Shown here: positions 7,176-64,000 of the stretch, piece after piece
Position numbering within the stretch: the first letter of the stretch is position 1
How the letters are laid out: the number at the start of each line of letters is the position of its first letter
Virus record (IMG/VR): IMGVR_UViG_3300049491_000383
Location: 72,080-136,079 of that record
Strand: one strand, 5' to 3'
Length of the DNA stretch: 64,000 nucleotides
Source of the DNA: a virus
Notes under the pieces: generated by a model
Seen by the model: only the letters and a program-made list of their open reading frames with translations
What the model was told of the DNA's origin: nothing
Database searches by the model: none
Program-made: the position numbers and the translations under genes

Positions 7176-7182
7176 AAATGTA

Positions 7183-37200: not shown

Positions 37201-37222
37201 GAAAATGGGGCCGAAGCCCCAT
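37201..37222 (-). terminator. terminator after tmRNA
   Basis: ATGGGGC-TTCG-GCCCCAT followed by TTT. Confidence 0.75.
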
Positions 37223-37610: not shown

Positions 37611-37639
37611 AACTACTTTATAGCATTCTATTTATCTTG

Positions 37640-50150: not shown

Positions 50151-50180
50151 AAAAAGCTCGTTACCTTTCGATAACGAGCT
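50149..50180 (-). terminator. terminator for the minus-strand tRNA transcript
   Basis: AGCTCGTTA/TAACGAGCT hairpin followed by T7 on the minus strand. Confidence 0.65.
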
Positions 50181-50184
50181 AGAA

Positions 50185-50260
50185 TGGCACCCCGCTAGGG
50201 ATTCGAACCCCAACCGCGCAGCTTTGGAGGCCGGCATGCTGCCAATAACACTTGCGAGAT
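50185..50260 (-). tRNA. tRNA-Trp(CCA)
   Basis: Loop CT-CCA-AA, G73. Confidence 0.85.
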
Positions 50261-50265
50261 ATATG

Positions 50266-50340
50266 TGGAGCCGCCAAGAGGAATCGAACCCCTATTTGAA
50301 CGTTCGTAGCGTTCTGTCCTATCCGTTGAACGATGGCGAC
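50266..50340 (-). tRNA. tRNA-Arg(ACG)
   Basis: Loop CT-ACG-AA. Confidence 0.9.
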
Positions 50341-50358
50341 ATGTAATTATTTATGATT

Positions 50359-50433
50359 TGGCAGGGGAGGAAGGGATCGAACCTTCTAACCTGGTTTCAA
50401 AGACCAGTATGCATACCATTGCATATCACCCCA
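50359..50433 (-). tRNA. tRNA-Gln(TTG)
   Basis: Loop CT-TTG-AA, G73. Confidence 0.88.
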
Positions 50434-50444
50434 ACTGTATAGAC

Positions 50445-50501
50445 AGAATACGTTTTATTTTCAATTAAAAGTTGATTTTTTGAAATTGCTGAATGTATTC
50501 T
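50445..50501 (-). ncRNA. CAGCAA-helix RNA with Lys(UUU) anticodon stem-loop mimic (member E)
   Basis: AGAATAC-ATTCAGCAAT...TCAA-CTTTTAA-TTGA...GTATTCT. Confidence 0.75.
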
Positions 50502-50511
50502 TTAGAAAACT

Positions 50512-50748
50512 TTACTTTACGAAGTTGGGTTGACCTTCTCGGGCTTTCCACTTCAAATGGATCCATCCTTTTGGTACATAATGACTAATTCCAGTCTCGT
50601 CAAACAGACGATGACCTCCTGCACTAACCGATAACTTCGATGGCTTTGAAATTGTTACAACTTCTCCGCCAGGAAATGTGTATGAGCGGTAATCTTCGCT
50701 CGAAATATCTGAAAAGATATTGCTTGATTCATTAACAAATGGTGTCAT
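50512..50748 (-). CDS. conserved phage hypothetical protein
   Basis: Likely start MTPFVNES after SD AGGAGG; the longer ORF-track version overlaps a tRNA. Confidence 0.55.
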   Translation of the reverse strand: MTPFVNESSNIFSDISSEDYRSYTFPGGEVVTISKPSKLSVSAGGHRLFDETGISHYVPKGWIHLKWKAREGQPNFVK

Positions 50749-50831
50749 AAGACCTCCTAATTGATTAAAACACTTACTTGCCTTGGAAATCAAGGACGAA
50801 GTGTATTGAATCATATTTATCTGATTTCTAT

Positions 50832-50908
50832 TGGTACCCCTAGTTGGATTCGAACCTACAACCAACAGATTTTAAGTCTGTCCGCACTACCGATTAGCGT
50901 ATAGGGGC
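50832..50908 (-). tRNA. tRNA-Leu(TAA) with short variable loop
   Basis: Loop CT-TAA-AA, 4-5 nt variable loop, A73. Confidence 0.85.
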
Positions 50909-51093
50909 ATAAAAGATCAGTATGAGTTCGAATTTTGCTGTGAACCTGCAGCCGGTTATTCCACAGTTGAGGGCTATGCCTTGCCACAGATGCACCCCGG
51001 CTCGACAATATTCGACCAACCTTCCAGGAGCTTGCTCACAATGTCCTGGATAAAGCCCGGTGTGACTGTGTCTCCCCATACTGAAGGGCAAAA

Positions 51094-51185
51094 TGGAGGC
51101 CAGGGTTGGATTCGAACCAACGATGTATACCTGGGTAGTTTCCCGCTTTGCAGACGGGTGCGTTCGGCCGCTTTGCTACCTGGCC
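51094..51185 (-). tRNA. tRNA-Cys(GCA) with extended variable region
   Basis: Loop CT-GCA-AA, U73, ~20-nt variable region. Confidence 0.82.
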
Positions 51186-51335
51186 ATATTCTGACTGCTA
51201 ATGTATTAGACCGTTGCAGTACATATGCAACAGTATACCACCTGCATTGCAAGTGAGCAAGATCAATCTAATAACGTAGTAACTTCGTTTATAATCCGAC
51301 GTATACCACCGCTGTAGCACATACAGGTCGGCTTC

Positions 51336-51713
51336 TTAGGTTGCGTCTGCGCCCAATTCTTCCTGAAGCTTCTTGAACATTTTGATCTTGGATGCCTTAT
51401 CCTTTAGTTCCTTCTTGAACTTACGCTCAAGTGCAGCTTCTTCTCTCTTCTTTTTTTCCTCTTCGGCCTTCTTGGCTTCAGCGTTAGCAATTGCTAAGTA
51501 ATCCTTGAGGGTTCTTGCAACGAATGCCTTTGTATCTAACGGCTGTTCAAGAATTTGAAATCCCATTCTTGGTGCTGCGAATTGCAGAGCCTTAAACTCT
51601 TCATCAGTAACTGATTCCCATTCAGTAATGCTAGTTACAATCTTGTTGTAATCTTCACCATCATATCCAGAATAGAATTCACGTGATGTGATAATTGCAA
51701 TCTTGTGTGTCAT
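51336..51713 (-). CDS. hypothetical protein with C-terminal coiled coil
   Basis: Likely start MTHKIAII. Confidence 0.5.
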   Translation of the reverse strand: MTHKIAIITSREFYSGYDGEDYNKIVTSITEWESVTDEEFKALQFAAPRMGFQILEQPLDTKAFVARTLKDYLAIANAEAKKAEEEKKKREEAALERKFKKELKDKASKIKMFKKLQEELGADAT

Positions 51714-51801
51714 AGTTTTCCTTATATAGTCAGAGTGCGCTTTCTTTTCAAGATAATGGTTTGAAATTGTTTTAGGTTTGCGGTAAACACTCTTTAGAAA
51801 G

Positions 51802-51885
51802 TGGTGGGGCGTCCAGGTAACGATCCTGGCGGGCCGAAGCAACGGATTTACAGTCCGCTCCATCTCCTTAGTGGTCTACCACCCC
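51802..51885 (-). tRNA. tRNA-Tyr(GTA), atypical T-loop
   Basis: Loop CT-GTA-AA, variable arm, T-loop ATCGTTA. Confidence 0.8.
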
Positions 51886-51956
51886 GTATTGGTCAGCAGA
51901 ACGTTGCCAGCGTGGAGAAACATTGTCTATGAGAACAAGCGGTTCTACTCCAATAT

Positions 51957-52247
51957 CTATACACCATCTGCTTCAGCTATTGCTGCCATCAGGCATAATG
52001 CAAGAACTCTTCGCTTTTGGTTTGTTGGTTCCTTCGGTGAACCAAACGTTCCTCTATACAATGTATTATTGTATTTTTCATTTTGAAACAAGTAACACAT
52101 CGCCATAGCTTCCGGAATGTTGTAGTTGAAGAATTCCATTGACATGGGCTTCTTATATTTCACCATGTAGATAGCTGTGCAACAAAACAAAGCCTTTCCA
52201 GACTCCACTAGCTTTGCTGCTTCAAGGTATAGTGTACTTGTCTTCAT
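51957..52247 (-). CDS. hypothetical protein
   Basis: 96-aa ORF. Confidence 0.45.
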   Translation of the reverse strand: MKTSTLYLEAAKLVESGKALFCCTAIYMVKYKKPMSMEFFNYNIPEAMAMCYLFQNEKYNNTLYRGTFGSPKEPTNQKRRVLALCLMAAIAEADGV

Positions 52248-52421
52248 TTATCAATCTCAATGTCTTCGCCACGAAGTTTTGCAACTGTCGCAGCTTCTTT
52301 ACACTTCTTTGATTTACAAAAGTAAGTCCTTCCTATGCCCTTGCGATCATTTGGCTGCAAGGAAAACATATACTTTCTGCAATTATCACAGTGAACATCA
52401 ATTGTTCTGCTTGTCATATTA

Positions 52422-52497
52422 TGGTAGGCCCTGACAGCATCGAACTGTCATCACTCCGCTTAAAAGGCGGGTCTCTAGCCATTTGAGTTAAGGACCC
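52422..52497 (-). tRNA. tRNA-Lys(TTT)
   Basis: Loop CT-TTT-AA. Confidence 0.9.
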
Positions 52498-52506
52498 ATT
52501 GTATTG

Positions 52507-52581
52507 TGGTAGGACCGGGGAATTTCGAAATCCCGACCAACGGATTAAAAGTCCGCTGCTCTTCCTCTGAGCTACGATCCC
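52507..52581 (-). tRNA. tRNA-Lys(TTT), second copy
   Basis: Loop CT-TTT-AA. Confidence 0.88.
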
Positions 52582-52586
52582 TCAGA

Positions 52587-52883
52587 TTATTTCGATGGTT
52601 TAGTTAGGACTTCGTGTCCATCTCCTTGTTGTCCCGGTGTTGCCATTGTAGTTCCTTGTGACGCGATGCGCCTGTTAAGTAATTCTCTTAAATCTTTCAT
52701 GTTGCCTGCCTGTGCTCCGGTCATCCAATGATTAAGACTGGGTGAAAGATAATATGCAAGCTTTCTATATAGGTCGCTATCGCCTTCTGTCTCCTCAACA
52801 TGCTTCTGAAGAAGCAATGCATTAGACAGGGCAATACTGAGACTGTTCTCAATGTGATCGATATAATTCTTCACAACGTCCAT
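52587..52883 (-). CDS. hypothetical protein
   Basis: Likely start MDVVKNY. Confidence 0.45.
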   Translation of the reverse strand: MDVVKNYIDHIENSLSIALSNALLLQKHVEETEGDSDLYRKLAYYLSPSLNHWMTGAQAGNMKDLRELLNRRIASQGTTMATPGQQGDGHEVLTKPSK

Positions 52884-52895
52884 TGTAATCCTTAG

Positions 52896-52984
52896 TGGCG
52901 GATGATAGAGGATTTGAACCTCTGGACCGTTTATAGGTCGACGGTTTAGCAAACCGTTGCAATAAGCCTCTCTGCCAATCATCC
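52896..52984 (-). tRNA. tRNA-Ser(GCT)
   Basis: Type II, loop TT-GCT-AA, G73. Confidence 0.9.
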
Positions 52985-53135
52985 AAATTTTAAATCCTTG
53001 TAGGGAGTCGAACCCTGAGAGTATCAGTCTCTAGACCTTAGCCGTGTACCTACTAGATTTCGGGTTGCCTTTCTCTGATACATACTCGGCATGCGGTCCT
53101 ACTTCTCGTTCGGCGATCTAACAAGGACAAGTCTA

Positions 53136-53378
53136 TTATAGAGTCGTTGCTTTCTCAGAAGCAATCGACTCCAGATGCTTGCGAATGTAACGCATGAATA
53201 GCATCGCTTTATCTTCTCTTAGAAATACACCGTCTCCCACATCCTCAATAGGAACAGGGAACTCAAAACCATCAACTTCTTTGTCAAATGCCTCAACGCG
53301 GTAGAATAATTCTCCCTTGCGGTACATTACAAATTGAACACGGTTACCAGAGGCAACGTATGATTTTAAAGTTGGCAT
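53136..53378 (-). CDS. conserved phage hypothetical protein
   Basis: YRKGEL.Y...FEFPVP..D.GDG.F...DKA..FMRYIRK. Confidence 0.65.
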   Translation of the reverse strand: MPTLKSYVASGNRVQFVMYRKGELFYRVEAFDKEVDGFEFPVPIEDVGDGVFLREDKAMLFMRYIRKHLESIASEKATTL

Positions 53379-53500
53379 ATCTTTCCTTTATTATTGAATT
53401 CACAGCGCCAGGAATCGAACCTAGAGTACCAATATGAACGGAATCGAACCGTCTCTTCGGGCTGCGCGCGGTTCCCGGGCACCAAGCCTCACTGTGAAAC

Positions 53501-53577
53501 TGGCAAGGGATCTCGGACTCGAACCGAGGCTTTCATGGCTCAGAACCACGCTACTCTTCCCGTTAAGCTACTCCCCA
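53501..53577 (-). tRNA. tRNA-Gln(CTG)
   Basis: Loop TT-CTG-AG, G73. Confidence 0.82.
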
Positions 53578-53662
53578 ATTGTCTTTGGTGCCCCCGGGCT
53601 TACACCTACTACCTCATGTGGCCTACATGAGCGTTCTTCCATTCCAGGATGAGAGCATTATT

Positions 53663-53738
53663 TGGCATGCCTACGGGGAATCGAACCCCGCTTTACACCG
53701 TGAAAGGGTGTCGTCCTAAACCGATAGACGATAGGCAC
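53663..53738 (-). tRNA. tRNA-Glu(TTC)
   Basis: Loop CT-TTC-AC. Confidence 0.92.
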
Positions 53739-53744
53739 AATGTA

Positions 53745-53816
53745 TGGCAAGGGCGATGAGAATCGAACTCATTCCAACCAGGTTCAAAGCCTAGTGTCTC
53801 TCCAAGAGTCGCCCCA
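53745..53816 (-). tRNA. tRNA-Gln(TTG), compact D-arm
   Basis: Loop CT-TTG-AA; D-arm CTCT-TGG-AGAG. Confidence 0.75.
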
Positions 53817-53822
53817 ATTGTA

Positions 53823-53899
53823 TGGCATCCCCATTGGGATTCGAACCCAACTTTCCACCTTGAGAGGGTAGCGTCCTGAAACCACTAGACGATGGAGAT
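53823..53899 (-). tRNA. tRNA-Glu(CTC)
   Basis: Loop CT-CTC-AA. Confidence 0.9.
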
Positions 53900-53910
53900 A
53901 TAAATATATC

Positions 53911-54360
53911 GTGTTAAAACAAATAGATACAGATCCATTCATTGAATATCCAGAACTGCTCGACATCTGGCCACATAGGCGAGTCGAAATACTCCGTGAT
54001 GTACAGGATTGTTTGGAACATCCAGAACTTGAGCGAATGTTTCTAATAATTTACAACAACAAACCGGTAGGTATCACAGGTTATTACCAATATGATAACC
54101 AAGTCGGTCTAAACTGGCACGGTATTCTTAAAGAATACAGCGGGTATGGATACGGACTAGCAGCACTTAAGGAATTACTTCCTCTTGCCATTGCCCATTA
54201 TCCCAATGCTACATATCTAATTGAAGAATTACCTGCAATCTCTGAAAAAGAACTTAGTAGTTTCTTTCTAAAGGCCGGCTTTATGAAAACAAACATACTT
54301 GTTGATAAACCGTGGATCACAGACGATACCGATTGGATCGAATATCGTCTAAAACTCTAA
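53911..54360 (+). CDS. GNAT-family acetyltransferase
   Basis: PVGITG, WHGIL.EYSG.GYG, FFLKAGF. Confidence 0.75.
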   Translation: MLKQIDTDPFIEYPELLDIWPHRRVEILRDVQDCLEHPELERMFLIIYNNKPVGITGYYQYDNQVGLNWHGILKEYSGYGYGLAALKELLPLAIAHYPNATYLIEELPAISEKELSSFFLKAGFMKTNILVDKPWITDDTDWIEYRLKL

Positions 54361-54550
54361 TCCCAACCAAGCGTTACCTCTGTAACATACAGATGGCACA
54401 TGACGCTCTTATAATTCAGCCTAATTAGGAGGTTGGCACCATTTTTATAAGTGATGACTCCACGATTATATCGTTTATGTATGGCCATCCACGTGGGGAC
54501 CCGTACCTTGTCACCTACTTGAAATATGTGCCGTGCCATTGTTATCCTTA

Positions 54551-54621
54551 TGGACCCACCGGAGGGATTCGAACCCCCTACATGACGTTCGTAGCGTCTT
54601 GGCTATTCCAATAGCGGTGAG
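54551..54621 (-). tRNA. tRNA-Arg(ACG), compact D-arm
   Basis: Loop CT-ACG-AA; D-arm CTATT-GG-AATAG. Confidence 0.7.
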
Positions 54622-54893
54622 ATTAATAATATTTATCAAATACAGTCAGTTGACGTCTTTGCTTACTATAGTATTCTCTCTCAAGTCTGTCAACATCGGC
54701 TGCGTCTTGCGGATGGCCGGCTGTGATGTAAGCTTCCAGGTTGTGATGGTAGCTAGGCTCTGCGAAAATTTCTTTGATGTAAGCGATAAAGTTTGAAAAC
54801 ATAATGTGCTCCTTAGTATTGATAACTATTTACCAATATTTGCTGCATTGCAGCATTTATATCAGTATAAACACTAAGAACCACAAAAGTCAA

Positions 54894-54969
54894 TGGTCGC
54901 GTATGGTGGATTCGAACCACCGTATTCATTCTTATGAGGAATGCGCTCTAGCCTCTCTGCCAATACGCG
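54894..54969 (-). tRNA. tRNA-Met/Ile2(CAT)
   Basis: Loop CT-CAT-AA. Confidence 0.85.
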
Positions 54970-54980
54970 ATAAAATAATC

Positions 54981-55036
54981 AGGATACCTTTTTGCTTTTT
55001 TACAGAAAAGTTGATTTGGGTTGCGGAATGTATCCT
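54981..55036 (-). ncRNA. CCGCAA-helix RNA with Tyr(GUA)-like loop (member F)
   Basis: AGGATAC-ATTCCGCAAC...CTTTT-CTGTAAA-AAAG...GTATCCT. Confidence 0.7.
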
Positions 55037-55099
55037 TTAGAAACAGTGACCGGCTTTATCATTATATCAGATAGTGATTATAAAGCTCTCGGCCGAAAA

Positions 55100-55194
55100 T
55101 GGCGGATGGTGATGGATTTGAACCACAACCCTTTGGAAAGGGTCAAATATGATTCCAGTGATTTGCGTGCTTGCCTATCGCACTTCAACCATCC
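55100..55194 (-). tRNA. tRNA-Ser(GGA)-like, irregular anticodon stem
   Basis: GGATGGT/ACCATCC-G-CCA, variable arm ACCCTTT/AAAGGGT, CT-GGA-AT. Confidence 0.6.
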
Positions 55195-55197
55195 AGA

Positions 55198-55698
55198 TTA
55201 AAGACTATTACTTACGAAATAATCCCTTATGGTATTGTAGGTATGGGGCAATTTAAACCCTAACCCAAGAACATACCGTGTTTCACCTAAATTTAATACT
55301 GAATGAGTAGATTGAGTATTTAGCAGATACATTCCGCCGGGCTCATATACCAATTCTTCTATATTTTTCTTATTACTATGCTCTGCGTCTTCTCCATACA
55401 CCGTATGTGAGTGACCAGACCATATTTCAATGTTTAGTGCTGCTGTTCTATCTGCATCCACATGCCATTTATACCAATAATTAGCAGGTGTACGGAAAAT
55501 GTTTGATTTTACACCAAACTCTTTCATTATTTTGTCTACAACAGGATCAATTATAACACCCTGCGATATGTTAAGTACATCAAAACCATAACCAATGTTG
55601 TTCCAGGTATGATCTTTTGAGAAAATGTATTCCCTAACTTCGTTTAAAGATTGAAACTGTGAGTTGAGCTTGATGAAATTGTTATTCATATCTAACAT
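55198..55698 (-). CDS. 2OG-Fe(II) oxygenase-like protein
   Basis: WHVD..R.AALN, LLNT...HSV.N...RY. Confidence 0.6.
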   Translation of the reverse strand: MLDMNNNFIKLNSQFQSLNEVREYIFSKDHTWNNIGYGFDVLNISQGVIIDPVVDKIMKEFGVKSNIFRTPANYWYKWHVDADRTAALNIEIWSGHSHTVYGEDAEHSNKKNIEELVYEPGGMYLLNTQSTHSVLNLGETRYVLGLGFKLPHTYNTIRDYFVSNSL

Positions 55699-56242
55699 AC
55701 TTACTAAAAATTTCTAAACTCTCTGTAAGCGTTACCCAATTGTTATTCTTCTTAAAGAAAACACTTACACTCCATCGTTTCTCGTTGCTTGTGTTAAACA
55801 CTGCATGTGGAGTACCGGCATCTATCAGGCACCATCCAGATAATGCTTGTTCTTCTAGCTGAACACTATCTGCGAAATCAAAAGGTACATACACGGTACC
55901 GATAGCCGAATTCTTTGACACTTTATCTGCCCGGCAACGAGCATTGATGTCATACCAGCGCATTGTGCTACCAGTACCACCAATGACATAGTTAAGTTTG
56001 CTTCTACTTTCCCATTTATCTGGTAGTAGTGTGCCATCTATGTGACAACTTCTACTATTTGTATTAGGTTGCATATGAAATATCTCCATATGTCCTATAG
56101 TGAGTCCCAGATTCTGGAATAGTTTATGGATATCGGGGTGTATCTGTGTGTCAGTATCTAACCTAGTATGATATTGATCCTTTGGTAAATCTGCATTTAC
56201 AAAGGGAAACATATCTAGATTGATGTTGACACTATACTTCAT
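55682..56242 (-). CDS. 2OG-Fe(II) oxygenase-like protein
   Basis: HIDG, PHAV.N...RWSVS. Confidence 0.6.
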   Translation of the reverse strand: MKYSVNINLDMFPFVNADLPKDQYHTRLDTDTQIHPDIHKLFQNLGLTIGHMEIFHMQPNTNSRSCHIDGTLLPDKWESRSKLNYVIGGTGSTMRWYDINARCRADKVSKNSAIGTVYVPFDFADSVQLEEQALSGWCLIDAGTPHAVFNTSNEKRWSVSVFFKKNNNWVTLTESLEIFSKYVRYE

Positions 56243-57057
56243 TTATAAATCTTTGCGTGATCGAATGCAATTCTATGCAGAACACGCTCTTCCATATTCT
56301 CAAAATACCAACGCTTGTGAATACTTAACCATTGTTCAGAGATAACAATATCGCCATCTTGCCAATTATGATGGTACATGTATTTTTCTTGCAGTACATG
56401 TGCCTTAAGTTTCTCAAGTATAGTACGAAACTTAGTTTCTTCACAGTCCTTGAAGCCAAAGATTTGTAAGAATGGCAAAAATAACCCTGTCTCACCCTCT
56501 TCGTTAGTTTGAACTAGCTTAATTGGATTGTTTAGGTTGACGTGATCTTTGAAATATTCGGAAGTTGAGTATTGACCGTTCTTGTATCCACAATAGATTT
56601 CAATATCCTTAATCTGTTCTTTTAGCAATGGATGCAAATCACGATAACTCATGATGTTGTTTATCCAGCTTGTTCTAGAGCCGACAGTACCCTGTTCAGC
56701 ATAAAGCCAAATTAGGGGATTTCTTACAGGATTAGATGGTTGATTAGCGTGCCAATCAAGATCTTCTTTATGGCCAAACAGTCCTTCTTGGCCGTCAGCA
56801 TTCTTTTTACCTGTAACTCTAATGACATTGTCAGAGAGTGCTATGTGCTTTGCTCTCTCCATGTTGTTCTGTTGGACATTACCTGCAATTTTGCAGAATC
56901 TAACCTCATCATCTAGCGTTAGCGTCTGCTGCGGGAATACAACTACCATGTTCTTTACGGTTAGGCGGATAACCTCTCTTACTTCGTCTTCTGACAAAGT
57001 TCGAATGTCATCTCTAATGATTATTGTCCAACCATTCTCGTGTAGCTCAATCTTCAT
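56239..57057 (-). CDS. TauD/TfdA-family dioxygenase
   Basis: LDWHAN, H.WQDGDIVI, IHKR, R.LHR. Confidence 0.85.
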   Translation of the reverse strand: MKIELHENGWTIIIRDDIRTLSEDEVREVIRLTVKNMVVVFPQQTLTLDDEVRFCKIAGNVQQNNMERAKHIALSDNVIRVTGKKNADGQEGLFGHKEDLDWHANQPSNPVRNPLIWLYAEQGTVGSRTSWINNIMSYRDLHPLLKEQIKDIEIYCGYKNGQYSTSEYFKDHVNLNNPIKLVQTNEEGETGLFLPFLQIFGFKDCEETKFRTILEKLKAHVLQEKYMYHHNWQDGDIVISEQWLSIHKRWYFENMEERVLHRIAFDHAKIYK

Positions 57058-57259
57058 TCTTCATTCCCCATTTAATCTTAAGCCATACTCTTTCGTGTAT
57101 ATAATAATCAAGGCTTAGGAGAACATGAAGTGCGGTAGCAAAGCCTGCTGAGGCCATAATGCTTCCTGTAAATAAAAATGTCCAGAAGATAGTGAATAGC
57201 CAGGCAGTAAGCCTATAACTTATCATACGAGCAATTGTTCTCTTATGTGTTTCAATCAT
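57047..57259 (-). CDS. DUF2061-like small membrane protein
   Basis: ETHKRT.ARMISYR...YYIHERVW..I.WG. Confidence 0.75.
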   Translation of the reverse strand: MIETHKRTIARMISYRLTAWLFTIFWTFLFTGSIMASAGFATALHVLLSLDYYIHERVWLKIKWGMKNED

Positions 57260-57310
57260 AATATGCCTAAACAAATATTTATATGATGTGTTAACACGCG
57301 ATTTTGTTTC

Positions 57311-57384
57311 TGGTGCGGGCGGCGGGAATCGAACCCGCGAATGAACATTGGCAATGTTCGAGTATACCACTTACTTACACACGC
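57311..57384 (-). tRNA. tRNA-Gly(GCC) with A73
   Basis: Loop TT-GCC-AA; discriminator A instead of U. Confidence 0.82.
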
Positions 57385-57389
57385 ATATA

Positions 57390-57481
57390 TGGCGGAAGAA
57401 GGACGTGTCGATCGCCTACCGGCTCGTCACCGATACACCTGTTTTCAAGGCAGAGACTGAGGCCGCTCAGTGTCATCTTCC
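57390..57481 (-). tRNA. selC-like (8/4) tRNA-Ser(TGA)
   Basis: GGAAGATG/CTTCTTCC-G-CCA, 6-bp D-stem ACTGAG-CGGC-CTCAGT, CT-TGA-AA, long variable arm, T-loop ATCGACA. Confidence 0.72.
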
Positions 57482-57485
57482 ATAT

Positions 57486-57561
57486 TGGTACCTGGTGTAG
57501 GACTCGAACCTACATAAGTCATCTTGTAAGGATGGCGGTTAACCTCTCACACCAACCAGGC
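57486..57561 (-). tRNA. tRNA-Val(TAC)
   Basis: Loop CT-TAC-AA. Confidence 0.85.
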
Positions 57562-57569
57562 ATTGTTTG

Positions 57570-57642
57570 TCTACGTCATACGGGCTCCGATCCCGTGACC
57601 CCCGCCCTTGCCGGCGGTGCTCTCCCTCTGAGCTAATGGCGT
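57570..57642 (-). pseudogene. tRNA-like element with 6-nt anticodon loop and no CCA
   Basis: D-arm GCTC/GAGC, CCGCC-GGCAAG-GGCGG, T-loop ATCGGAG. Confidence 0.5.
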
Positions 57643-57675
57643 CTCTGTATAACTCTTCAACGAAGAGATAGTGAA

Positions 57676-57751
57676 TGGTGCCGCGGACTGGAATCGAACC
57701 AGTGACACATAACTTTTCAGGCTACTGCTCTACCAACTGAGCTACCACGGC
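57676..57751 (-). tRNA. tRNA-Phe(GAA)
   Basis: Canonical, loop CT-GAA-AA. Confidence 0.93.
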
Positions 57752-58020
57752 ATAAATTTTGGTGGACCTAAAGGTGTATAGGATAGTGACTTCTATGGGC
57801 CCATTGACTTGGTGGATAGTGCAGGAATCGAACCTAGCGAGCGCCCGTCGGCTTTCACAGTACCATACTAAATGGGAATCGAACCCAAATACTCTCCATT
57901 TACTACCCATAACTGACGGAATCTACGGGATTCGAACCCGCCACTCCCTATGTTGGAAGCTACTCCAAGACTTGTTCAGCATAGTGCGCCTAGGGCCGAA
58001 CTTATCACAGATCTCATAAC

Positions 58021-58097
58021 TGGTACCCCCGGTTGGATTCGAACCTACAACCATCAACTTTTGAGGCTGACCGCGCTACCAATTAGCGTACGGGGGC
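58021..58097 (-). tRNA. tRNA-Leu(CAA) with short variable loop
   Basis: Loop CT-CAA-AA; paralog of the tRNA at 50832. Confidence 0.85.
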
Positions 58098-58106
58098 ATT
58101 GAAATT

Positions 58107-58182
58107 TGGAGTGTACGATAGGAGTCGAACCTACATAAAACAGGGTTGCAATCTGTTCCCTAGCCTTTCGGGTCACGCACAC
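58107..58182 (-). tRNA. tRNA-Cys(GCA)
   Basis: Loop TT-GCA-AC, U73. Confidence 0.85.
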
Positions 58183-58302
58183 ATTGTAAGGCACCCGCCG
58201 GAGGGAATCTAACCCTCGATATATCCCAGCATCTAGGGACCTTGTTCATTTACAGCCGGAAGAGTTTGCTCCGGGCAATGACGACAGCATTGAAAACTAT
58301 TA

Positions 58303-58375
58303 GGGGTGACTAACGGGGTTCAAACCCGTACAAAGATCTTCACAGGATCTGATGCTTTCATTACATCATAGTCAC
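58303..58375 (-). tRNA. tRNA-His(GTG), no encoded CCA
   Basis: Loop CT-GTG-AA, C73. Confidence 0.7.
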
Positions 58376-58396
58376 ACCTAATAGCTCTTAGGTGTT

Positions 58397-58470
58397 TGGG
58401 GTGTCTTGGGGAATCGAACCCTCGCCTGCTGATTCACAGTCAGCTTTGCTACCACTACACTAAAGGCACC
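58397..58470 (-). tRNA. tRNA-His(GTG)
   Basis: G-1:C73, loop CT-GTG-AA. Confidence 0.88.
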
Positions 58471-58482
58471 ATTGAATAAAAC

Positions 58483-58598
58483 AGGTTCGCATTATACGTG
58501 CTACCACTACACTAAAGCGACGACCAACCTCGCTCCCAGGACTCGAACCTGGCCCTTCCATTTTCAAGATGAATAATTTTTGTTGCTGAAACGAACCT
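58483..58598 (-). ncRNA. circularly permuted tRNA(UGA) closed by the CAGCAA helix (member G)
   Basis: AGGTTCG-TTTCAGCAAC, TTCAT-CTTGAAA-ATGGA, T-arm CCAGG/CCTGG, looped acceptor GAGCGA/TCGCTT, D-arm, CGAACCT. Confidence 0.8.
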
Positions 58599-58615
58599 AA
58601 CGGTCGAAATAAATC

Positions 58616-58717
58616 AGGATGTTTGGCTTTGGACCAGGAGTCGAACCCTATTGCCATGCCCCCTCTGGGCTGGTCCGCTGAGTTTTGGTAGCGATTTTAG
58701 ATTGCTGAAACCATCCT
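58616..58717 (-). ncRNA. CAGCAA-helix RNA with T-loop domain (member H)
   Basis: AGGATG-GTTTCAGCAAT...GG-TTCGACT-CC...CATCCT. Confidence 0.7.
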
Positions 58718-58724
58718 TTAAACT

Positions 58725-58800
58725 TGGTACCCCAGAGGAGATTCGAACTCCCACACTTAGTTTCTAAGACTAATACGACTGCCAATTACGTCACCGGGGC
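58725..58800 (-). tRNA. tRNA-Leu(TAG) with short variable loop
   Basis: Loop CT-TAG-AA, variable loop GTGT. Confidence 0.85.
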
Positions 58801-58807
58801 ATATATA

Positions 58808-58884
58808 TGGTGCGGTAGGTGGGACTCGAACCCACAAGATTTAGTTTCTAAGACTAACACGTATACCAATTCCGTCACAACCGC
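58808..58884 (-). tRNA. tRNA-Leu(TAG) with short variable loop
   Basis: Loop CT-TAG-AA, variable loop ATCT. Confidence 0.87.
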
Positions 58885-58976
58885 ATAAAATTTTCGGAGT
58901 AGTGGCAGGGCATCCCCACTTGGAATCCCACATAATCCTGTTGGTCTGTTGTGTGGCCACACATCATTCCACGTCC

Positions 58977-59054
58977 TGGCTCCAGGAACTGGAATCGAAC
59001 CAGTCTAATCTTGGTTAACAGCCAAGCGGTTGACACCATGTCGCCTCTCCCGGA
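58977..59054 (-). tRNA. tRNA-Asn(GTT)
   Basis: Loop CT-GTT-AA, G73. Confidence 0.82.
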
Positions 59055-59128
59055 ATTGTATTTTCAAAGTAGGTACCCGTCTACCAGCCCACAGTGGACC
59101 CAATAGAACATCCTCGTATACTTCAATC

Positions 59129-59204
59129 TGGCCCGTTCTGCAGGATTCGAACCTACTTCATGTGCTCTTCAGGCACCTGCTATGACCACATCAGCTAAGA
59201 ACGG
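59129..59204 (-). tRNA. tRNA-Phe(GAA)
   Basis: Loop CT-GAA-GA; unusual C1:G72 and G73. Confidence 0.82.
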
Positions 59205-59209
59205 ATATA

Positions 59210-59286
59210 TGGCGGGCCGTGAGCGATTCGAACGCCCAACACGCAGTTTTGGAGACTGCTGTTCTGCCAATTGGAACTAACGACCC
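59210..59286 (-). tRNA. tRNA-Trp(CCA)
   Basis: Loop CT-CCA-AA, G73. Confidence 0.9.
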
Positions 59287-59365
59287 ATAATTTAGATTGG
59301 GCTTCACACCCACAATTGTCTGTTGCCTAGCGCATTGTTCAGGCTTACAGCTAACCCATCGATTT

Positions 59366-59441
59366 TGGCTCCGTGAGAACGATTCGAACGCTCCTCTTCC
59401 GGTTAACAGCCGGAGGTACTCACCGAGAATACGATCACGGA
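59366..59441 (-). tRNA. tRNA-Asn(GTT)
   Basis: Loop CT-GTT-AA, G73. Confidence 0.85.
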
Positions 59442-59442
59442 A

Positions 59443-59832
59443 TTATCTTATTACAAATTCATCATACTTCAAACTTTTTCCAAATGTGATACTATGTTTT
59501 ACCAGTATCTTATTTTTTGGAACTAATGCTTTTAGCTCTGTCTGGATATGATACAAAAATATCATATCCCAGTCTTGCATTGATGCATCCTTACATGTAG
59601 TGTTGGTACCATTGTTACCACCCTTTACATTTATTTCAAATCTTTCAGCGCCGGCATCAAATTGGCTACTTGTCTTTACTTGTACCTTAAATAATTTACT
59701 ATCTTTAGATACAACCAGATCCCAATCTTCGCTATCAGTTAACGGTATACATACGCCATAACCAGCTTTGGTAAAATATGCAATTGCCTGGCCGAGACCA
59801 GCGTTACCTTGCTTTAAACTATTTTGGAACAT
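59443..59832 (-). CDS. PD-(D/E)XK homing-endonuclease-like protein
   Basis: G..G...AI.YF...GY.V..P..D...WDLVV...KVQVKT. Confidence 0.8.
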   Translation of the reverse strand: MFQNSLKQGNAGLGQAIAYFTKAGYGVCIPLTDSEDWDLVVSKDSKLFKVQVKTSSQFDAGAERFEINVKGGNNGTNTTCKDASMQDWDMIFLYHIQTELKALVPKNKILVKHSITFGKSLKYDEFVIR

Positions 59833-60003
59833 ATAACTCCTGACTATAAGTCAGTTATTTATCACCGTTTGCATTGGAGCCCAATGGTCGTGTATACCGA
59901 TAGCGACGCGATTGTCGGGCATTGATTTGTCTGACATATATAGGAATTGAACCTAGTAGATCCTCTAGTCGGGGACCGGCCGCCATGCAATATGTCAATA
60001 CTC

Positions 60004-60074
60004 TGGCAGTGTATATAGGATTCTAACCTAGTCACCCTTCCGAAACAGGGCAGGTGTCCGCACGGAGATACACT
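60004..60074 (-). tRNA. atypical tRNA-like gene with 8-nt anticodon loop; identity unclear
   Basis: AGTGTAT/ATACACT-G-CCA, T-loop TTAGAAT, GCCCT-GTTTCGGA-AGGGT. Confidence 0.5.
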
Positions 60075-60082
60075 ATTGTTTC

Positions 60083-60156
60083 TGGTAGGTCCTAAAGGAT
60101 TCGAACCTTTGTGAATCGCCTATCAAGCAATCATTCTACCATTGAATTAAGGACCC
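60083..60156 (-). tRNA. tRNA-Ile(GAT)
   Basis: Loop TT-GAT-AG. Confidence 0.88.
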
Positions 60157-60161
60157 ATTAT

Positions 60162-60233
60162 TGGAGCGGGCGACAGGATTCGAACCTGCATCTTTCAGCT
60201 TGGAAGGCTAAACGTATTCCCTAAACCGCACGC
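60162..60233 (-). tRNA. tRNA-Gly(TCC), reduced D-arm
   Basis: Loop CT-TCC-AA, U73. Confidence 0.75.
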
Positions 60234-60359
60234 ATATACGTGCCAGGTGATTTATAACGCGATTCACTGACTCCCGCGACTTACGGATGGGTTCACATGT
60301 ACAAGGTTAACCCACCTATCTTATGTTCTTACCTAGCACCGAAGTGCCAGGATTTTGTC

Positions 60360-61388
60360 TTACGCTGGGACGTTAACCCAGATCATCAGGCCCATTCCCT
60401 TGGTCAACTTACGGTTAACCGACGTGGATTGCACGTAGATTTCGTAGTTGGCATGGTTGCCCGGAGCAAGCTTGACATCGCCGGAGTGCGGGAGGCCGAG
60501 CAGGTCGCGTGCATTGAAGCCACTGTAGACAGCACCGGACGTCTTGTCACGGATGGCAATCTGTTTGTAGCCCTGGACGGTTTCAGTCTTCTTCAACTCG
60601 TAGAACGCACAGCCCTTTGTAAAGGTAATGCCCTGGTCGTTGACGAAATCACGAATCTGTGCGCCATCATTGGCAGCATCCACTTCGTAGACTTCAACTT
60701 GCTTGGAGATGTCAACCAACTCGGTCTTCACTTCCTTCAGGGTCACATTGCTCAGGTCCGCGTAGAACTTGTCGGTTGCATTGATACCGCGTGCCTTGGC
60801 AGCATAAAAACCCTTGAAAGCACTCTTGGTCATCACAGTCGACGCAGCAATACCACGTTCCGATTGTTCCCATTCCTGGATGTTGCCTTCCGGAATACCG
60901 TATTGGGTAAGCTGATGCTTATAGCCCGCAGGTACTCGGAACACAAATGTCCAACGATCGGTCATTTGCAGCTTCTTGATCAGCTTCGCAATTGCCGGAC
61001 CGGTGTACTTGCGACTTGCATTTTCGCCACCGTCAGTTGTGGTGAACACCACAAAGGATACGCTGGGATCATCCGCATCGGGCACTGCCTGGAGTTGTTC
61101 AACCAATTCACCCACTGCATCAAACAGCGGAGTACCACGTCCACGAGCACTGTAGCTAGACTCCAGCAACGGCTTCAGTGCCGAAACAGAGGAGTTACTA
61201 ACGACAGTACGCACTTCATCAGTGCTGCCGTATCCAAGTTCGACCACAGTCACAACGGTATCAATACCGTGGGTGGCTGCTTCTTCCTTGATGGATTCAA
61301 TGTTTTCGTTGTAATCACGTGCGGCGTGGCGTGCAATGTTAGCCATCGAGCCGGAGTGATCTCGTGCAAGTCCTTGGTATACTTTCAT
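60360..61388 (-). CDS. vWA-domain protein
   Basis: MIDAS DHSGSM, TPLFDAV, TTDGGENAS; C-terminal VQSTSVNRKL. Confidence 0.85.
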   Translation of the reverse strand: MKVYQGLARDHSGSMANIARHAARDYNENIESIKEEAATHGIDTVVTVVELGYGSTDEVRTVVSNSSVSALKPLLESSYSARGRGTPLFDAVGELVEQLQAVPDADDPSVSFVVFTTTDGGENASRKYTGPAIAKLIKKLQMTDRWTFVFRVPAGYKHQLTQYGIPEGNIQEWEQSERGIAASTVMTKSAFKGFYAAKARGINATDKFYADLSNVTLKEVKTELVDISKQVEVYEVDAANDGAQIRDFVNDQGITFTKGCAFYELKKTETVQGYKQIAIRDKTSGAVYSGFNARDLLGLPHSGDVKLAPGNHANYEIYVQSTSVNRKLTKGMGLMIWVNVPA

Positions 61389-61455
61389 GTGTGCCTTTCT
61401 GTTTGATGTAGTGAATCTACCTCTACACTATAATACAGTTGGCTCTTTGTGTCAA

Positions 61456-61572
61456 TGGTGCCGCCGCCGGGAATCGAACACCGGATCTACTCCTTGTAAT
61501 GGAATTTAGATTGCTGTATGTATCCTTGACAGGATCACCTTTTTAGTTGTGTTGCCTTTACACTACAGCGAC
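61456..61572 (-). ncRNA. CCA-ending tRNA(UAC)-like RNA with the CAGCAA helix inserted between the D and anticodon arms (member I)
   Basis: GTCGCTG/CGGCGGC-A-CCA, D-arm, insert ATCCT-GTCA-AGGAT-ACATACAGCAAT, TTCC-ATTACAA-GGAG, T-arm. Confidence 0.78.
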
Positions 61573-61723
61573 ATTGATTGGAGTCCGTTTATACGCATTA
61601 TATGCAATACAGTGATAGGGAAAACGGATAAAAATTGGCCCCACGATGACATGATTACAGTGGTCAACAACAGGGATTGATTCAATCATCCTAATATGAT
61701 ACAGTGATCAGGGAAGACGATTT

Positions 61724-61799
61724 TGGTGGGTTCGCCCGGCATCGAACCGGGATCTCGCTGCTTAAGAGGCAGGACTCTAGCCATTTGAGTTACAAACCC
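61724..61799 (-). tRNA. tRNA-Lys(CTT)
   Basis: Loop CT-CTT-AA. Confidence 0.9.
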
Positions 61800-61813
61800 G
61801 TAACTAAGAAACT

Positions 61814-61904
61814 TGGCGGGCGCGTCACGGAGTCGAACCGGACTTTAGCGTATTTGGAGAACGCCTCATCAGACCATAAGCCTAATATAAAGCCTTAGTC
61901 GCCC
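61814..61904 (-). tRNA. tRNA-Trp(CCA)-like with expanded D region
   Basis: GCGT-T-CTCCAAA-T-ACGC, T-loop TTCGACT, G73 CCA; long D-region hairpin. Confidence 0.55.
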
Positions 61905-61909
61905 ATAAC

Positions 61910-61984
61910 TGGCATCCTGTACGAGAATCGAACTCGCCTGAATAGGTTGAAAGCCTACGGACCTCACCAGAAGTCAAACAGGAT
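61910..61984 (-). tRNA. tRNA-Glu(TTC)
   Basis: Loop CT-TTC-AA, G73. Confidence 0.82.
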
Positions 61985-62268
61985 ATAAATTTTGAAGTTG
62001 TTATCCAAACACACGAGGAGAATCGAACTCCCACACACGCCTTGCTGACGCCGCACTGCCATTATGCTACATGCTCATTTCTAAAGACCTACGTCAACAG
62101 TTACAGAAGAAACGTGGATACAACTATTAAAGTCAGTTGACGCTGACTATAATTCTTTGAATGCTATTTGCAGGGGAGTCGAACACGCCACCTTAATGTA
62201 TCTAGATTGGTAAACACACTAATGTACCGACCAGAGATCCAATCACCTCTATGCACGGTTGCAAAATC

Positions 62269-62343
62269 TGGTGGCTCAACTAGGAATCGGACCTAGGACC
62301 TACGCCTTATCAAGACGGTGCTCTGCCATTGAGCTACTGAGCC
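62269..62343 (-). tRNA. tRNA-Ile(GAT)
   Basis: Loop TT-GAT-AA; T-loop TCCGATT. Confidence 0.88.
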
Positions 62344-62469
62344 AAATTAATGTAAGTTTCGTTTGTGGTGTTGAATAGGCATTACGGCCTTGATACAAAT
62401 CTGCGCTCTCTGTGTCCGCGCATAAGCAACCCTTACGTTACCAACGTATCGAATAGTTGTATCATTGAT

Positions 62470-62543
62470 TGGTCAGGATACTCAGAATCGAACTGAGGCT
62501 TCCACGCTCCGAAGGTGGGATGATACCATTTCATCATATCCTG
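62470..62543 (-). tRNA. tRNA-Pro(CGG)
   Basis: C1:G72, loop TT-CGG-AG. Confidence 0.82.
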
Positions 62544-62810
62544 TTAAAACTTAGAAATCTTCTGAGACAGGTCCTTTGCTTCTTCTAGGATTCCCATTGC
62601 CTTAGGATCTTCTTTCTTTGGTTCTTCTTTCTTTACTTCTTCCTTCTTTGCTTGACCGCAGCAACCACACTTTTCAGTATGTTGAAGTGCTCTGGTATAA
62701 ATTTTCCAGAACGCAAATAGATTGCCTAAGACAACCATAAGAAGAGTAAAAATAGTAAACAATCCAAACATTAACGGTACGTACATAAGATATCTCCAAC
62801 TGGATATCAT
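62544..62810 (-). CDS. small membrane protein
   Basis: Likely start MISSWRYL; TM segment and charged tail. Confidence 0.45.
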   Translation of the reverse strand: MISSWRYLMYVPLMFGLFTIFTLLMVVLGNLFAFWKIYTRALQHTEKCGCCGQAKKEEVKKEEPKKEDPKAMGILEEAKDLSQKISKF

Positions 62811-62850
62811 ATTTATGTGTAAGCCGTTCCAGCTTAAAATTGTAGTTAAT

Positions 62851-62928
62851 TGGTCTGCGTGGCTGGGTTCGAACCAGCGGCCTCCGAGTTCCAAGCCCGG
62901 CCGTCTACCTGACTGACAATACACGCAG
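62851..62928 (-). tRNA. tRNA-Pro(TGG)
   Basis: Loop CT-TGG-AA. Confidence 0.88.
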
Positions 62929-63078
62929 TTATAAAATTCAGTAGATCCGTATCATTAGCGTTCGTGCTACGTGCCCAGTTACTTCCCTATCGTTTCAGGG
63001 TTCACTTATACTGAAATACATTTGTTTAGAAGCGTAGGGGGCGTCAAAAGCTGATTATACATTCTTCTAAACTAAAAT

Positions 63079-63153
63079 TGGTGCTCCGTGGAGGATTCGA
63101 ACCCCCCTCTCTAGACTACAAAACTAGCATTCTACCGAATGAACTAACAGAGC
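63079..63153 (-). tRNA. tRNA-Thr(TGT)
   Basis: Loop TT-TGT-AG. Confidence 0.85.
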
Positions 63154-63154
63154 A

Positions 63155-63562
63155 TTAATAACTTTTACCCTTGGCATATAGTTGGCGGCGATAATGTCGT
63201 CCATTACCATAGTTTTTCGCCTTATATGTAGGGGTCTTGCTATGGCAATTCGGACACAGAAGTTCTATGTTATCTTCCATATCATTCTGACTATTGCCAT
63301 CTTTATGTTCGAGTTCAAGTGTTATAGGTTCACCCAACCATGTATCATTATGACACATATTGCATTCACCAGCTTGTTTCTCAAACAAATATCTTTTCAA
63401 CCATCCGGGCGAGCCTGCTACACGAGTAGATTTTCCCGTAAGTTTCCATTCAGCTACACGAAGTTCGTATATAGCATCCTGTTGACATTTATGATTACAG
63501 TATTTTCCATTTGACCAGTTTGGTTTATGGACATCTTTCTTACATTGTTGGCAAATAAACAT
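63155..63562 (-). CDS. HNH homing endonuclease
   Basis: YCN..C, LELEHKDGN...N..LLCPNCH. Confidence 0.9.
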   Translation of the reverse strand: MFICQQCKKDVHKPNWSNGKYCNHKCQQDAIYELRVAEWKLTGKSTRVAGSPGWLKRYLFEKQAGECNMCHNDTWLGEPITLELEHKDGNSQNDMEDNIELLCPNCHSKTPTYKAKNYGNGRHYRRQLYAKGKSY

Positions 63563-63594
63563 GTCTTGCTAATATAATTGGCTAAGCTAAGCCA

Positions 63595-63623
63595 ATTATA
63601 TTACGTAGATCTTCTTTTGTCAA
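63595..63623 (-). promoter_or_regulatory. consensus sigma70 promoter overlapped by a 14-bp inverted repeat
   Basis: TTGACA-17 nt-TATAAT; TAATATAATTGGCT/AGCCAATTATATTA. Confidence 0.7.
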
Positions 63624-63629
63624 CCAAAT

Positions 63630-63704
63630 TGGCGCCGTAGACGAGAATCGAACTCGCTTGCATCCGCTAGACAGGCGGCGACCCTTCCAAAGAGCTACTA
63701 CGGC
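63630..63704 (-). tRNA. tRNA-Asp(GTC)
   Basis: Loop CT-GTC-TA, G73. Confidence 0.8.
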
Positions 63705-63749
63705 AAATATGTTGAGTATTTATATAGACGCTCTCCAGCGCCATTGTTA

Positions 63750-63820
63750 TGGTGGACCTGTGGGGAGTTGAACCCCAAGCGTCGCATTGCAAGTGCAATT
63801 CCTGACCCGTCAGCAAGCCC
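63750..63820 (-). tRNA. tRNA-Ala(TGC), compact D-arm
   Basis: G3:U70, A73, loop CT-TGC-AA; D-arm CTGAC-GG-GTCAG. Confidence 0.78.
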
Positions 63821-63967
63821 ATATTAAATTCCTAAGACTACCTGCAGGTAGTTGTCGTCTCGAGAGGGCGAGTTTTAACAAACCATACTTCACGTTAAAA
63901 CCAATGCCTGGCTTTCGCCGGCGGGCGCTACTTGGGACTCAAGCCCTTCGTCTATCTTAGGAAAGAT

Positions 63968-64000
63968 TGGTGGGTGCTATAGGATTCGAACCTATTCAGG
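63968..64000 (-). tRNA. 3' part of a tRNA, truncated by the window edge
   Basis: T-arm ATAGG-TTCGAAT-CCTAT and ...CACCCACCA. Confidence 0.75.

Follow-up and report, generated by a model that had tools for sequence, protein, structure and literature searches.

In the long tRNA array of a phage described as giant and freshwater, we find a 43-nt element, mini-1, that carries an alanine-type acceptor end with an encoded CCA and that is almost unchanged in a related phage in which its neighbors are different. Genome comparison indicates that conservation, and not shape, sets mini-1 above chance, and on the strength of that conservation mini-1 is probably a working small RNA. Our fuller reading, that is, that mini-1 is a selected small RNA gene that derives from a tRNA-Ala-type gene and is probably excised in the manner of a tRNA, seems to us to stand about as good a chance of being right as of being wrong.

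The window (the whole stretch of 64,000 nt that was analysed) forms the final 64 kb of a virus record of 136,079 nt with a CheckV completeness of 35%. ARAGORN identifies 55 tRNA genes and a permuted tmRNA in its array (56 genes), all of them on the minus strand; CCA is encoded in 52 of the 55 tRNAs. Mini-1 and its surroundings, in minus-strand order, are as follows.

57914..58015, minus strand: element A, 102 nt in the window, tRNA-like, with G3.U70, a normal T arm and no callable cloverleaf.
57810..57908, minus strand: element B, the upstream neighbor, a 99-nt tRNA-like element (GGGTAGT/ACTATCC, G3.U70, A73, CCA) with two T-arm-like hairpins.
57803..57809, minus strand: leader of mini-1, 7 nt (AGTCAAT), with U at -1.
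57760..57802, minus strand: mini-1, a 43-nt RNA gene candidate with an acceptor-type helix, a 25-nt interior, A73 and CCA.
57752..57759, minus strand: spacer of 8 nt between the CCA of mini-1 and tRNA-Phe, not conserved in the related contig L089.
57676..57751, minus strand: tRNA-Phe(GAA), the downstream neighbor, called by ARAGORN (Rfam 68.9 bits), 87% identical to its L089 copy.
57643..57675, minus strand: spacer after tRNA-Phe, in which the halves of the interior motif of mini-1 (TCACTATC ... TATACA) are split by a small hairpin.

An initial annotation had described a 43-nt unit with an alanine-type acceptor and CCA, and the minus-strand sequence from 57802 to 57760, GGGCCCATAGAAGTCACTATCCTATACACCTTTAGGTCCACCA, is as described. 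In tRNA numbering, its ends pair as G1-C72, G2-C71, G3.U70, C4-G69, C5-G68 and A7-U66, with a mismatch at C6.A67, that is, six of the seven acceptor pairs form, with five clean pairs; A73 and the encoded CCA follow. The acceptor set that had been claimed (G1-C72, G2-C71, G3.U70, A73) is therefore present, with a C6.A67 mismatch that the annotation left unmentioned; the alanine identity marks G3.U70, A73 and G2-C71 are found both here and in L089. The element is also spaced like a gene of the array, as had been proposed: it starts 7 nt past the CCA of element B, it is followed by the 8-nt spacer, its CCA is encoded, and its leader ends in AAT (TAT or AAT leader ends are found in 28 of the 55 ARAGORN tRNAs). 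Thus, its ends are tRNA-like (acceptor stem with 6/7 pairs, discriminator, CCA, and short leader and trailer within an array); however, it is not a canonical tRNA (RF00005; ARAGORN), because the D, anticodon and T arms are missing. At mini-1, no tRNA is called by ARAGORN in the window or by Rfam over 50000-64000 (E ≤ 1), there is no cloverleaf, and there is no tmRNA- or Y RNA-like match (RF00023, RF02553; E ≤ 1); the 25-nt interior contains no T-loop or D-loop sequence.

The shape of mini-1 is by itself not beyond chance. Its minimum free energy (MFE) is -6.9 kcal/mol, compared with -6.36 ± 2.16 for shuffled sequences (z -0.25), and an equally good fold is reached by 68 of the 200 shuffles. 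The 136,079-nt contig is rich in hairpins of 30-68 nt that have a 7-bp stem (no more than one mismatch) and then N-CCA (360 on the minus and 546 on the plus strand), and 50 alanine-type hairpins (GGG...TCC-N-CCA, 30-114 nt), true tRNA-Ala included, occur in 2.40 Mb (the window and the loci, both strands counted).

The evidence for a selected unit comes instead from L089, an IMG/VR contig (99-kb record) that was found with a pattern built from the two ends of mini-1. In L089 (2110..2068), 42 of the 43 positions are identical, or 49/50 with the leader, which is itself unchanged (7/7) despite different upstream genes. The order in L089 is A' (96 nt, ending in A-CCA), 8 nt, the 43-mer, 6 nt, X' (73 nt), 43 nt and tRNA-Phe, so that mini-1 lies between B and Phe in the window and between A' and X' in L089; these differing neighbors argue against hitch-hiking of mini-1 with a larger block. 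Only 8,689 nt of the window genome can be aligned with L089, with a mean identity of 74.6%. By element, identity is 64-90% for 11 canonical tRNAs, 72-83% for elements A, D and E (the last two are described below), 48% for the Phe trailer and about 50% for orthologous spacers; with alignable DNA and spacers at these averages, 49/50 is not expected under neutrality. When 6,647 windows of 50 nt were examined between the window genome and L089, identity of at least 49/50 was found in three places only.

53677-53744: tRNA-Glu(UUC).
57758-57808: mini-1 with its leader.
61722-61803: tRNA-Lys(CUU).

The conserved footprint ends at the proposed borders of the mini-1 RNA, as it does for both tRNAs, and within it the interior is as conserved (24/25) as the stem. 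On this comparison of two genomes, the conservation looks like the expected picture of purifying selection on a discrete unit and fits poorly with a neutral relic or a chance hairpin; a near-identical copy in a distant relative, in another neighborhood, likewise favors the earlier view of mini-1 as a discrete gene-like unit and not debris. A covariance model built from the two copies (R1) finds only those two copies in the window, nine related loci and five whole virus records. The carriers of mini-1 read here are this strain and one relative, L089.

A second relative, L087, has no mini-1. L087 is a syntenic JGI contig that was found using tRNA-Leu(CAA) as the anchor (the same 8,818-nt contig as L088), and its array matches the window from about 50450 to 61574 with 69-90% identity. 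Its order is Cys, Leu(CAA), element A, element X and the conserved trailer; B, mini-1 and the first tRNA-Phe are absent, and X alone fills the slot. A tRNA-Phe pattern search for relatives found none, patterns taken from the trailer and from the end of element A found L088 only (and nothing in GTDB genomes), and a BLAST of 57300-60300 against 50,697 phage records gave only tRNA-sized matches. The neighboring TauD protein, as a single query, identified no relative in IMG/VR; an alignment of 25 TauD homologues led to 80 loci, 20 of which have a tRNA or tmRNA gene. In the large arrays of L007, L008-10, L013/14, L016 and L071, no mini-1 was detected with BLAST, a scan for alanine-type hairpins or the covariance model. 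Two matches of the model were rejected: one in L016 (4638-4665, E 4.6) lies in coding sequence, and one at 59134..59092 (7.7 bits, E 0.68) overlaps the end of a tRNA-Phe and terminates in ACTG.

Other contigs overlap the locus. X3 record 10, from a different sample, covers 57581-58123 with one other letter and represents a near-identical strain. X5 record 23, known by its coordinates, spans 57676-57941, differs there by 41 letters and 16 gaps, and is a putative, more diverged carrier. Two X4 contigs join across the whole block of A, B and mini-1 (57759 to 58018 and 57754 to 58021); with short sides and low likeness, these joins count only weakly against mini-1 as a selected gene.

Translation and RNA repair are richly represented around the array: the phage encodes a tRNA of suppressor type with anticodon CUA, a permuted tmRNA, a release-factor-like protein of 179 aa with PCRF and RF-1 domains, a protein with DUF2828/DUF7788 and an RNA ligase; the coordinates listed for these genes are 34903-34978, 37179-37635, 38160-38699, 14096-15529 and 17940-19025. 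Pfam identifies no gene for AlaRS, a Fem-type protein or an aminoacyl-transferase in 40 ORFs of the window (38 of the 51 ORFs of 150 aa or more and two shorter ones).

The folding predictions agree on the outer helix and differ on the interior. The 5-bp acceptor helix has pair probabilities of at least 0.96 in both variants of mini-1. Their sole difference, C21 in the window and U21 in L089, gives an A.C mismatch in the former and an A-U pair in the latter. In the L089 variant, an inner 6-bp helix with a 7-nt loop (GUCACUA) is predicted with pair probabilities of 0.74-0.89; the fold has an MFE of -9.1 (66% of the ensemble, z -1.66), and the 5-bp and 6-bp helices have 1 nt and 9 nt unpaired between them. 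In the window variant, the pair probability of the inner helix is at most 0.04. Thus, an inner hairpin of mini-1 is possible in these models and is not conserved, whereas the sequence itself is conserved. The earlier statement that mini-1 has no arms stands in that ARAGORN and Rfam find no cloverleaf; it does not stand for L089, in which the interior is predicted as a 6-bp stem with a 7-nt loop. Compared with a minihelix, mini-1 lacks the unbroken helix of about 12 bp that ends in a T loop; compared with an armless tRNA, it has U at position 37, no 5' connector and a stem that is broken in the window.

The origin of mini-1 can be approached through the other tRNA-like elements in these phages.

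5151..5077 in L087, minus strand: element X, 75 nt, GGGCCGC...GCGGTCC-A-CCA.
2061..1989 in L089, minus strand: element X', a 73-nt paralogue that adjoins mini-1.
63750..63820, minus strand: a tRNA-Ala(UGC)-like gene, 71 nt (GGGCTTG/CAGGTCC, A, CCA), the last 10 nt of which are those of mini-1.
59930-60074 (minus strand) in the window and 6158-6302 in L089: elements D and E, tRNA-like, after tRNA-Ile.

The acceptor type GGGC../..GGTCC-A-CCA is common to mini-1, X, X', the gene at 63820..63750 and the tRNA-Ala of L071. Mini-1 and X have in common the first five acceptor pairs, G3.U70, A73 and CCA; among 1,210 pairs of window and L087 tRNAs with different anticodons, only 8 have the same first 5 nt. 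The acceptor stem of X (GGGCCGC/GCGGTCC), A73 and CCA are identical in L087 and L089, and its body has diverged (53/78 overall), with the acceptor end and a T-like hairpin kept; in this hairpin the sequence has changed and the pairing has been kept (AGCGG.../...CCGCT versus CCAGGG.../...CCCTGG). X has no match to the Rfam tRNA model (E ≤ 10), and the MFE z-scores of A, B and X are unremarkable, with the exception of X' (z -2.41). The idea that mini-1 is a deleted orthologue of X was dropped, since L089 carries mini-1 and X' side by side, which identifies them as paralogues.

Element A is found in all three phages (L087 5158-5254, L089 2119-2214; 96-102 nt), with 73-87% identity across them (77% for L087 and 73% for L089 against the window). 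Its terminus is G-TCA in the window and A-CCA in L089 and is reported both ways for L087; its pair 2:71 is A.C in the window and G-C in the relatives. Element B has no counterpart in L087 or L089. In both D (AGTGTAT/ATACACT, G, CCA) and E (GACATAT/ATATGTC, A, no CCA), a T arm is accompanied by a very small hairpin that resembles a D arm; compared with L089 (83% and 72% identity overall), the ends of D and E are kept and the middles vary. In L007, a more distant relative with a TauD protein that is 60% identical, a 99-nt element (12112-12210, plus strand) with G3.U70, A73, CCA and a normal T arm lies directly after tRNA-Tyr and is not called by ARAGORN. Long tRNA-like RNAs with alanine identity may be widespread in this phage group.

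The initial annotation also linked mini-1 to a second element by a shared internal motif, GTCRCTATC-N1-2-TATACAC.

59875..59920, minus strand: mini-2, a 46-nt hairpin (GCCCGA/TTGGGC, U, CCA) with a similar motif and a TCAAT leader as at mini-1.

The motif is exact and occurs in exactly two places in the window, mini-1 and mini-2; however, the family link is at the level of chance. The local alignment of mini-1 and mini-2 scores 19; against 2,631 nt of same-strand spacers, 22% of 500 shuffled sequences reach this score, and against the whole window each of 40 shuffles did better, with at least 20. R1 has no match at 59875-59920 (E ≤ 10, filters off). Mini-2 has no G3.U70 and is absent from L087, in which another ORF is found, and from L089, in which D' and E' lead directly to a tRNA-Asn-like gene. 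The proposal of a mini-RNA family is therefore not supported by the shuffle test, the R1 search or the content of the two relatives. Run X4 includes a contig over 59874-60081, which places mini-2 in at least one other phage. Judged on sequence, the kinship of mini-2 to mini-1 is doubtful, with the chances about even.

A looser form of the motif (C[AG]CTATC, 0-25 nt, TATACA) has four copies in the 136-kb contig, with 0.34 expected, and all four lie within 57673-59905. One is the spacer after tRNA-Phe, where the copy is split, and another is on the opposite strand inside a PD-(D/E)XK ORF; thus, the motif is not a core that is specific to CCA-ending mini-RNAs, as had been supposed. In the relatives, L089 keeps the motif of mini-1 with one change, and L087 has only the split copy in the trailer. 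The Phe-trailer spacer (after X in L087, 5043-5076) is 86% identical in L087. Its layout is TCACTA(TC), a small hairpin and TATA(C/A)A (window 57643-57675, L087 5043-5076, L089 1841-1869), and in the hairpin the pairing is kept and the letters have changed in L089 (AGAC/GTCT versus CTCTTC/GAAGAG); its pattern is that of a spacer that may be a structured processing or regulatory signal. The mini-2 motif recurs, with a 7-nt insert, at 59730-59754 on the plus strand, within the PD-(D/E)XK (PF11645) ORF at 59443-59832, and forms with the copy at 59888-59905 on the minus strand an inverted pair around the start of this ORF. Neither the PF11645 ORF nor mini-2 is found in L087 or L089, so a joint arrival of the two is possible. 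A sigma-70-type consensus scan found no promoter at mini-1 or mini-2; near mini-2 it hit only a plus-strand hairpin that resembles a terminator.

In IMG/VR, GTCRCTATCNTATACAC is found in six stretches, all with zero tRNAs and no stem or CCA context, and the motif was rejected as a cross-phage family because these matches lack tRNA and acceptor context. In the same database, GTCACTATNCTATACAC is found in L089 only, in the tRNA array; in GTDB genomes it is found in 24 stretches, none with an acceptor context. Four of the 24 (L101, L105, L108 and L112) belong to one Nanoarchaeia MAG, in which ...GGTGACATAT precedes the 17-mer that was searched; this looks like a dispersed genomic repeat that is unrelated to the phage element.

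As we read these data, mini-1 would go back to the tRNA-Ala-type genes of this lineage and be a tandem paralogue of the 73-75-nt element X; it would retain the alanine-type acceptor end with its encoded CCA, whereas the D, anticodon and T arms would have been lost. From its position in the array, its tRNA-like flanks and the encoded CCA, co-transcription and excision are the simplest expectation: mini-1 would be transcribed with its array neighbors, cut by RNase P at G1, past a leader that ends in U, and trimmed at its 3' side as far as the encoded CCA. This would yield a 43-nt RNA that has no anticodon and displays only the acceptor end of tRNA-Ala. AlaRS might bind this RNA and perhaps charge it, and the RNA might tie up host factors that recognise nothing beyond the acceptor stem and CCA. 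By analogy, mini-1 may plausibly mimic an acceptor end and be bound by AlaRS or by enzymes that act on such ends; the interior is as conserved as the stem, which a pure mimic would not need. Other observations also count against the reading of mini-1 as a selected, excised RNA: a single relative is read as carrying it, L087, the closest syntenic relative, is without it, the helix is short (5 bp, a mismatch and 1 bp) around an interior of 25-31 nt and folds no better than shuffles, the 40 scanned ORFs yielded no AlaRS, Fem-type or aminoacyl-transferase gene, and a single substitution makes or breaks the inner hairpin.

Several known RNAs provide comparisons. Synthetic minihelix-Ala and microhelix-Ala were reportedly described by Francklyn and Schimmel in 1989 as substrates of alanyl-tRNA synthetase. 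Like them, mini-1 has an acceptor helix with G3.U70, A73 and CCA and no anticodon, and the two predicted helices of L089 (5 and 6 bp) could stack, in the model, to give a hairpin of ~11 bp with a 7-nt loop. Unlike minihelix-Ala, mini-1 is natural and encoded in a genome, its helix is interrupted (1 nt and 9 nt), its loop is not a T loop, and its inner helix is not predicted in the window. Mini-1 resembles the tRNA-like domain of tmRNA (RF00023) in having alanine acceptor identity without anticodon decoding; in contrast to tmRNA, it lacks a T arm and an mRNA-like part and is not matched by Rfam (E ≤ 1), and the acceptor end of the phage's own permuted tmRNA (..GCTCCACCA) is of another type. The tRNA cluster of phage T4 encodes species 1 and 2, small stable non-tRNA RNAs that are co-transcribed and co-processed with the tRNAs and whose function is not known. 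Mini-1 is likewise a candidate for a non-tRNA small RNA within a phage tRNA cluster; the T4 species differ in being above 100 nt and are not known to be acceptor-only alanine hairpins. Minihelices have been used to study G3.U70, the chief identity element for alanine (PMC9976931), and FaRel2, a toxin that acts on the CCA end, modifies synthetic minihelices (10.1101/2024.07.05.602228).

The conserved interior suggests that more than the acceptor end is read, and this keeps alive an explanation in which the conserved object is a cis-acting signal in the interior (TCACTAT(C/T)C TATACAC) and the tRNA-like ends are inherited packaging. Such a signal could be a site on the array transcript at which a phage or host protein binds or cleaves, a mark for processing or an unfamiliar kind of promoter. 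The interior matches the stem in conservation (24/25), the inner hairpin is not kept, the same half-motifs flank the hairpin after tRNA-Phe in a spacer that is 86% identical in L087, and the four copies of the two-part motif (0.34 expected) all lie within 2.2 kb. However, neither mini-1 nor mini-2 has a sigma-70-type promoter, the Phe trailer of L089 has the motif only in part, CACTAT-N1-25-TATACA occurs once in the 99-kb L089 record (in mini-1 itself), the pairwise similarity of the motifs is not significant, and the footprint coincides exactly with the stem, CCA and leader; we regard a cis-acting signal as possible, though unlikely. Quite unlikely, in our estimate, is a non-functional relic of an X-type tRNA-Ala-like gene minus its interior, the conserved look of which would come from a recent exchange of this small patch between related phages. 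The identity of 49/50, against a mean of 74.6% and spacers of about 50%, is unexpected under neutrality, and exchange needs homologous flanks, whereas here identity stops at the borders of the unit and the neighbors differ. In favor of a relic, gene fragments do occur in the array (e.g., 19 nt from the 5' part of tRNA-His are duplicated exactly), the content of the slot changes (L087 has X alone, L089 has mini-1 and X', and the window has B and mini-1), C6.A67 is mismatched and the fold is no better than that of shuffles, and the interior resembles pieces of neighboring 3' ends and the Phe trailer.

Two explanations carry much less weight with us. The element could be a decoding tRNA without D and T arms, in which the inner hairpin is the anticodon arm and the loop GUCACUA contains the anticodon CAC; like the armless mitochondrial tRNAs of some nematodes, mini-1 has ~43 nt, an acceptor stem with one inner stem-loop and no D or T arm. 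Unlike them, it has no 5' connector, position 37 is a pyrimidine (U) and not a purine, the inner stem is broken in the window (pair probability ≤0.04), and its host is bacterial rather than a specialised mitochondrion. Armless tRNAs are not known to be used by bacterial ribosomes and EF-Tu, and the acceptor identity (Ala) and the anticodon (Val) disagree. The 6-bp stem, 7-nt loop and U at loop position 2 in L089 fit an armless tRNA, as does a length close to that of the 44-nt armless mitochondrial tRNA cited in PMC9976931; we nevertheless consider this explanation very improbable. A chance hairpin ending in CCA in a 58-nt spacer would fit the fold (z -0.25) and the abundance of stem-NCCA hairpins (360 and 546 per strand); against it, 42 of 43 positions are conserved in a genome that is ~75% identical where it can be aligned, and the acceptor type is held in common with X at the same locus. 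Chance is refuted by the genome-wide identity comparison, barring a very recent exchange of this patch with L089, and we judge it scarcely credible.

A bolder proposal can be made, namely that each genome of this lineage maintains a set of alanine-identity RNAs that lack an anticodon, two or three in number (A, B or X, and mini-1), and that mini-1 is a natural alanine minihelix that is excised by tRNA enzymes, charged by the host AlaRS, and used as a non-ribosomal alanine donor or as a decoy for host defence enzymes that act on the acceptor stem and CCA end. We consider this proposal unlikely. Minihelices with G3.U70 and CCA have so far been laboratory constructs for studying the enforcement of the genetic code; a natural, selected phage minihelix would mean that viruses exploit the acceptor-stem 'second genetic code' alone, and it would provide a concrete 43-nt object to set against AlaRS, RNase P, the CCA-adding enzyme and the anti-phage toxins that act on tRNA ends. 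In full-text literature searches, no paper on such genes was listed. On the more modest reading, phage tRNA arrays hold conserved non-tRNA genes that are missed by standard tRNA finders, so the spacers of such arrays should not count as junk.

Two other spacers of this array have features of their own. The 5' part of tRNA-His is copied in the adjoining 254-nt spacer as an exact 19-nt direct repeat (58447-58465 and 58499-58517), and this spacer contains several T-arm-like hairpins. The 74-nt spacer after the second tRNA-Phe (59055-59128, minus strand) is well conserved in L087 (about 7121-7195) and not in L089, and it may hide another small RNA.
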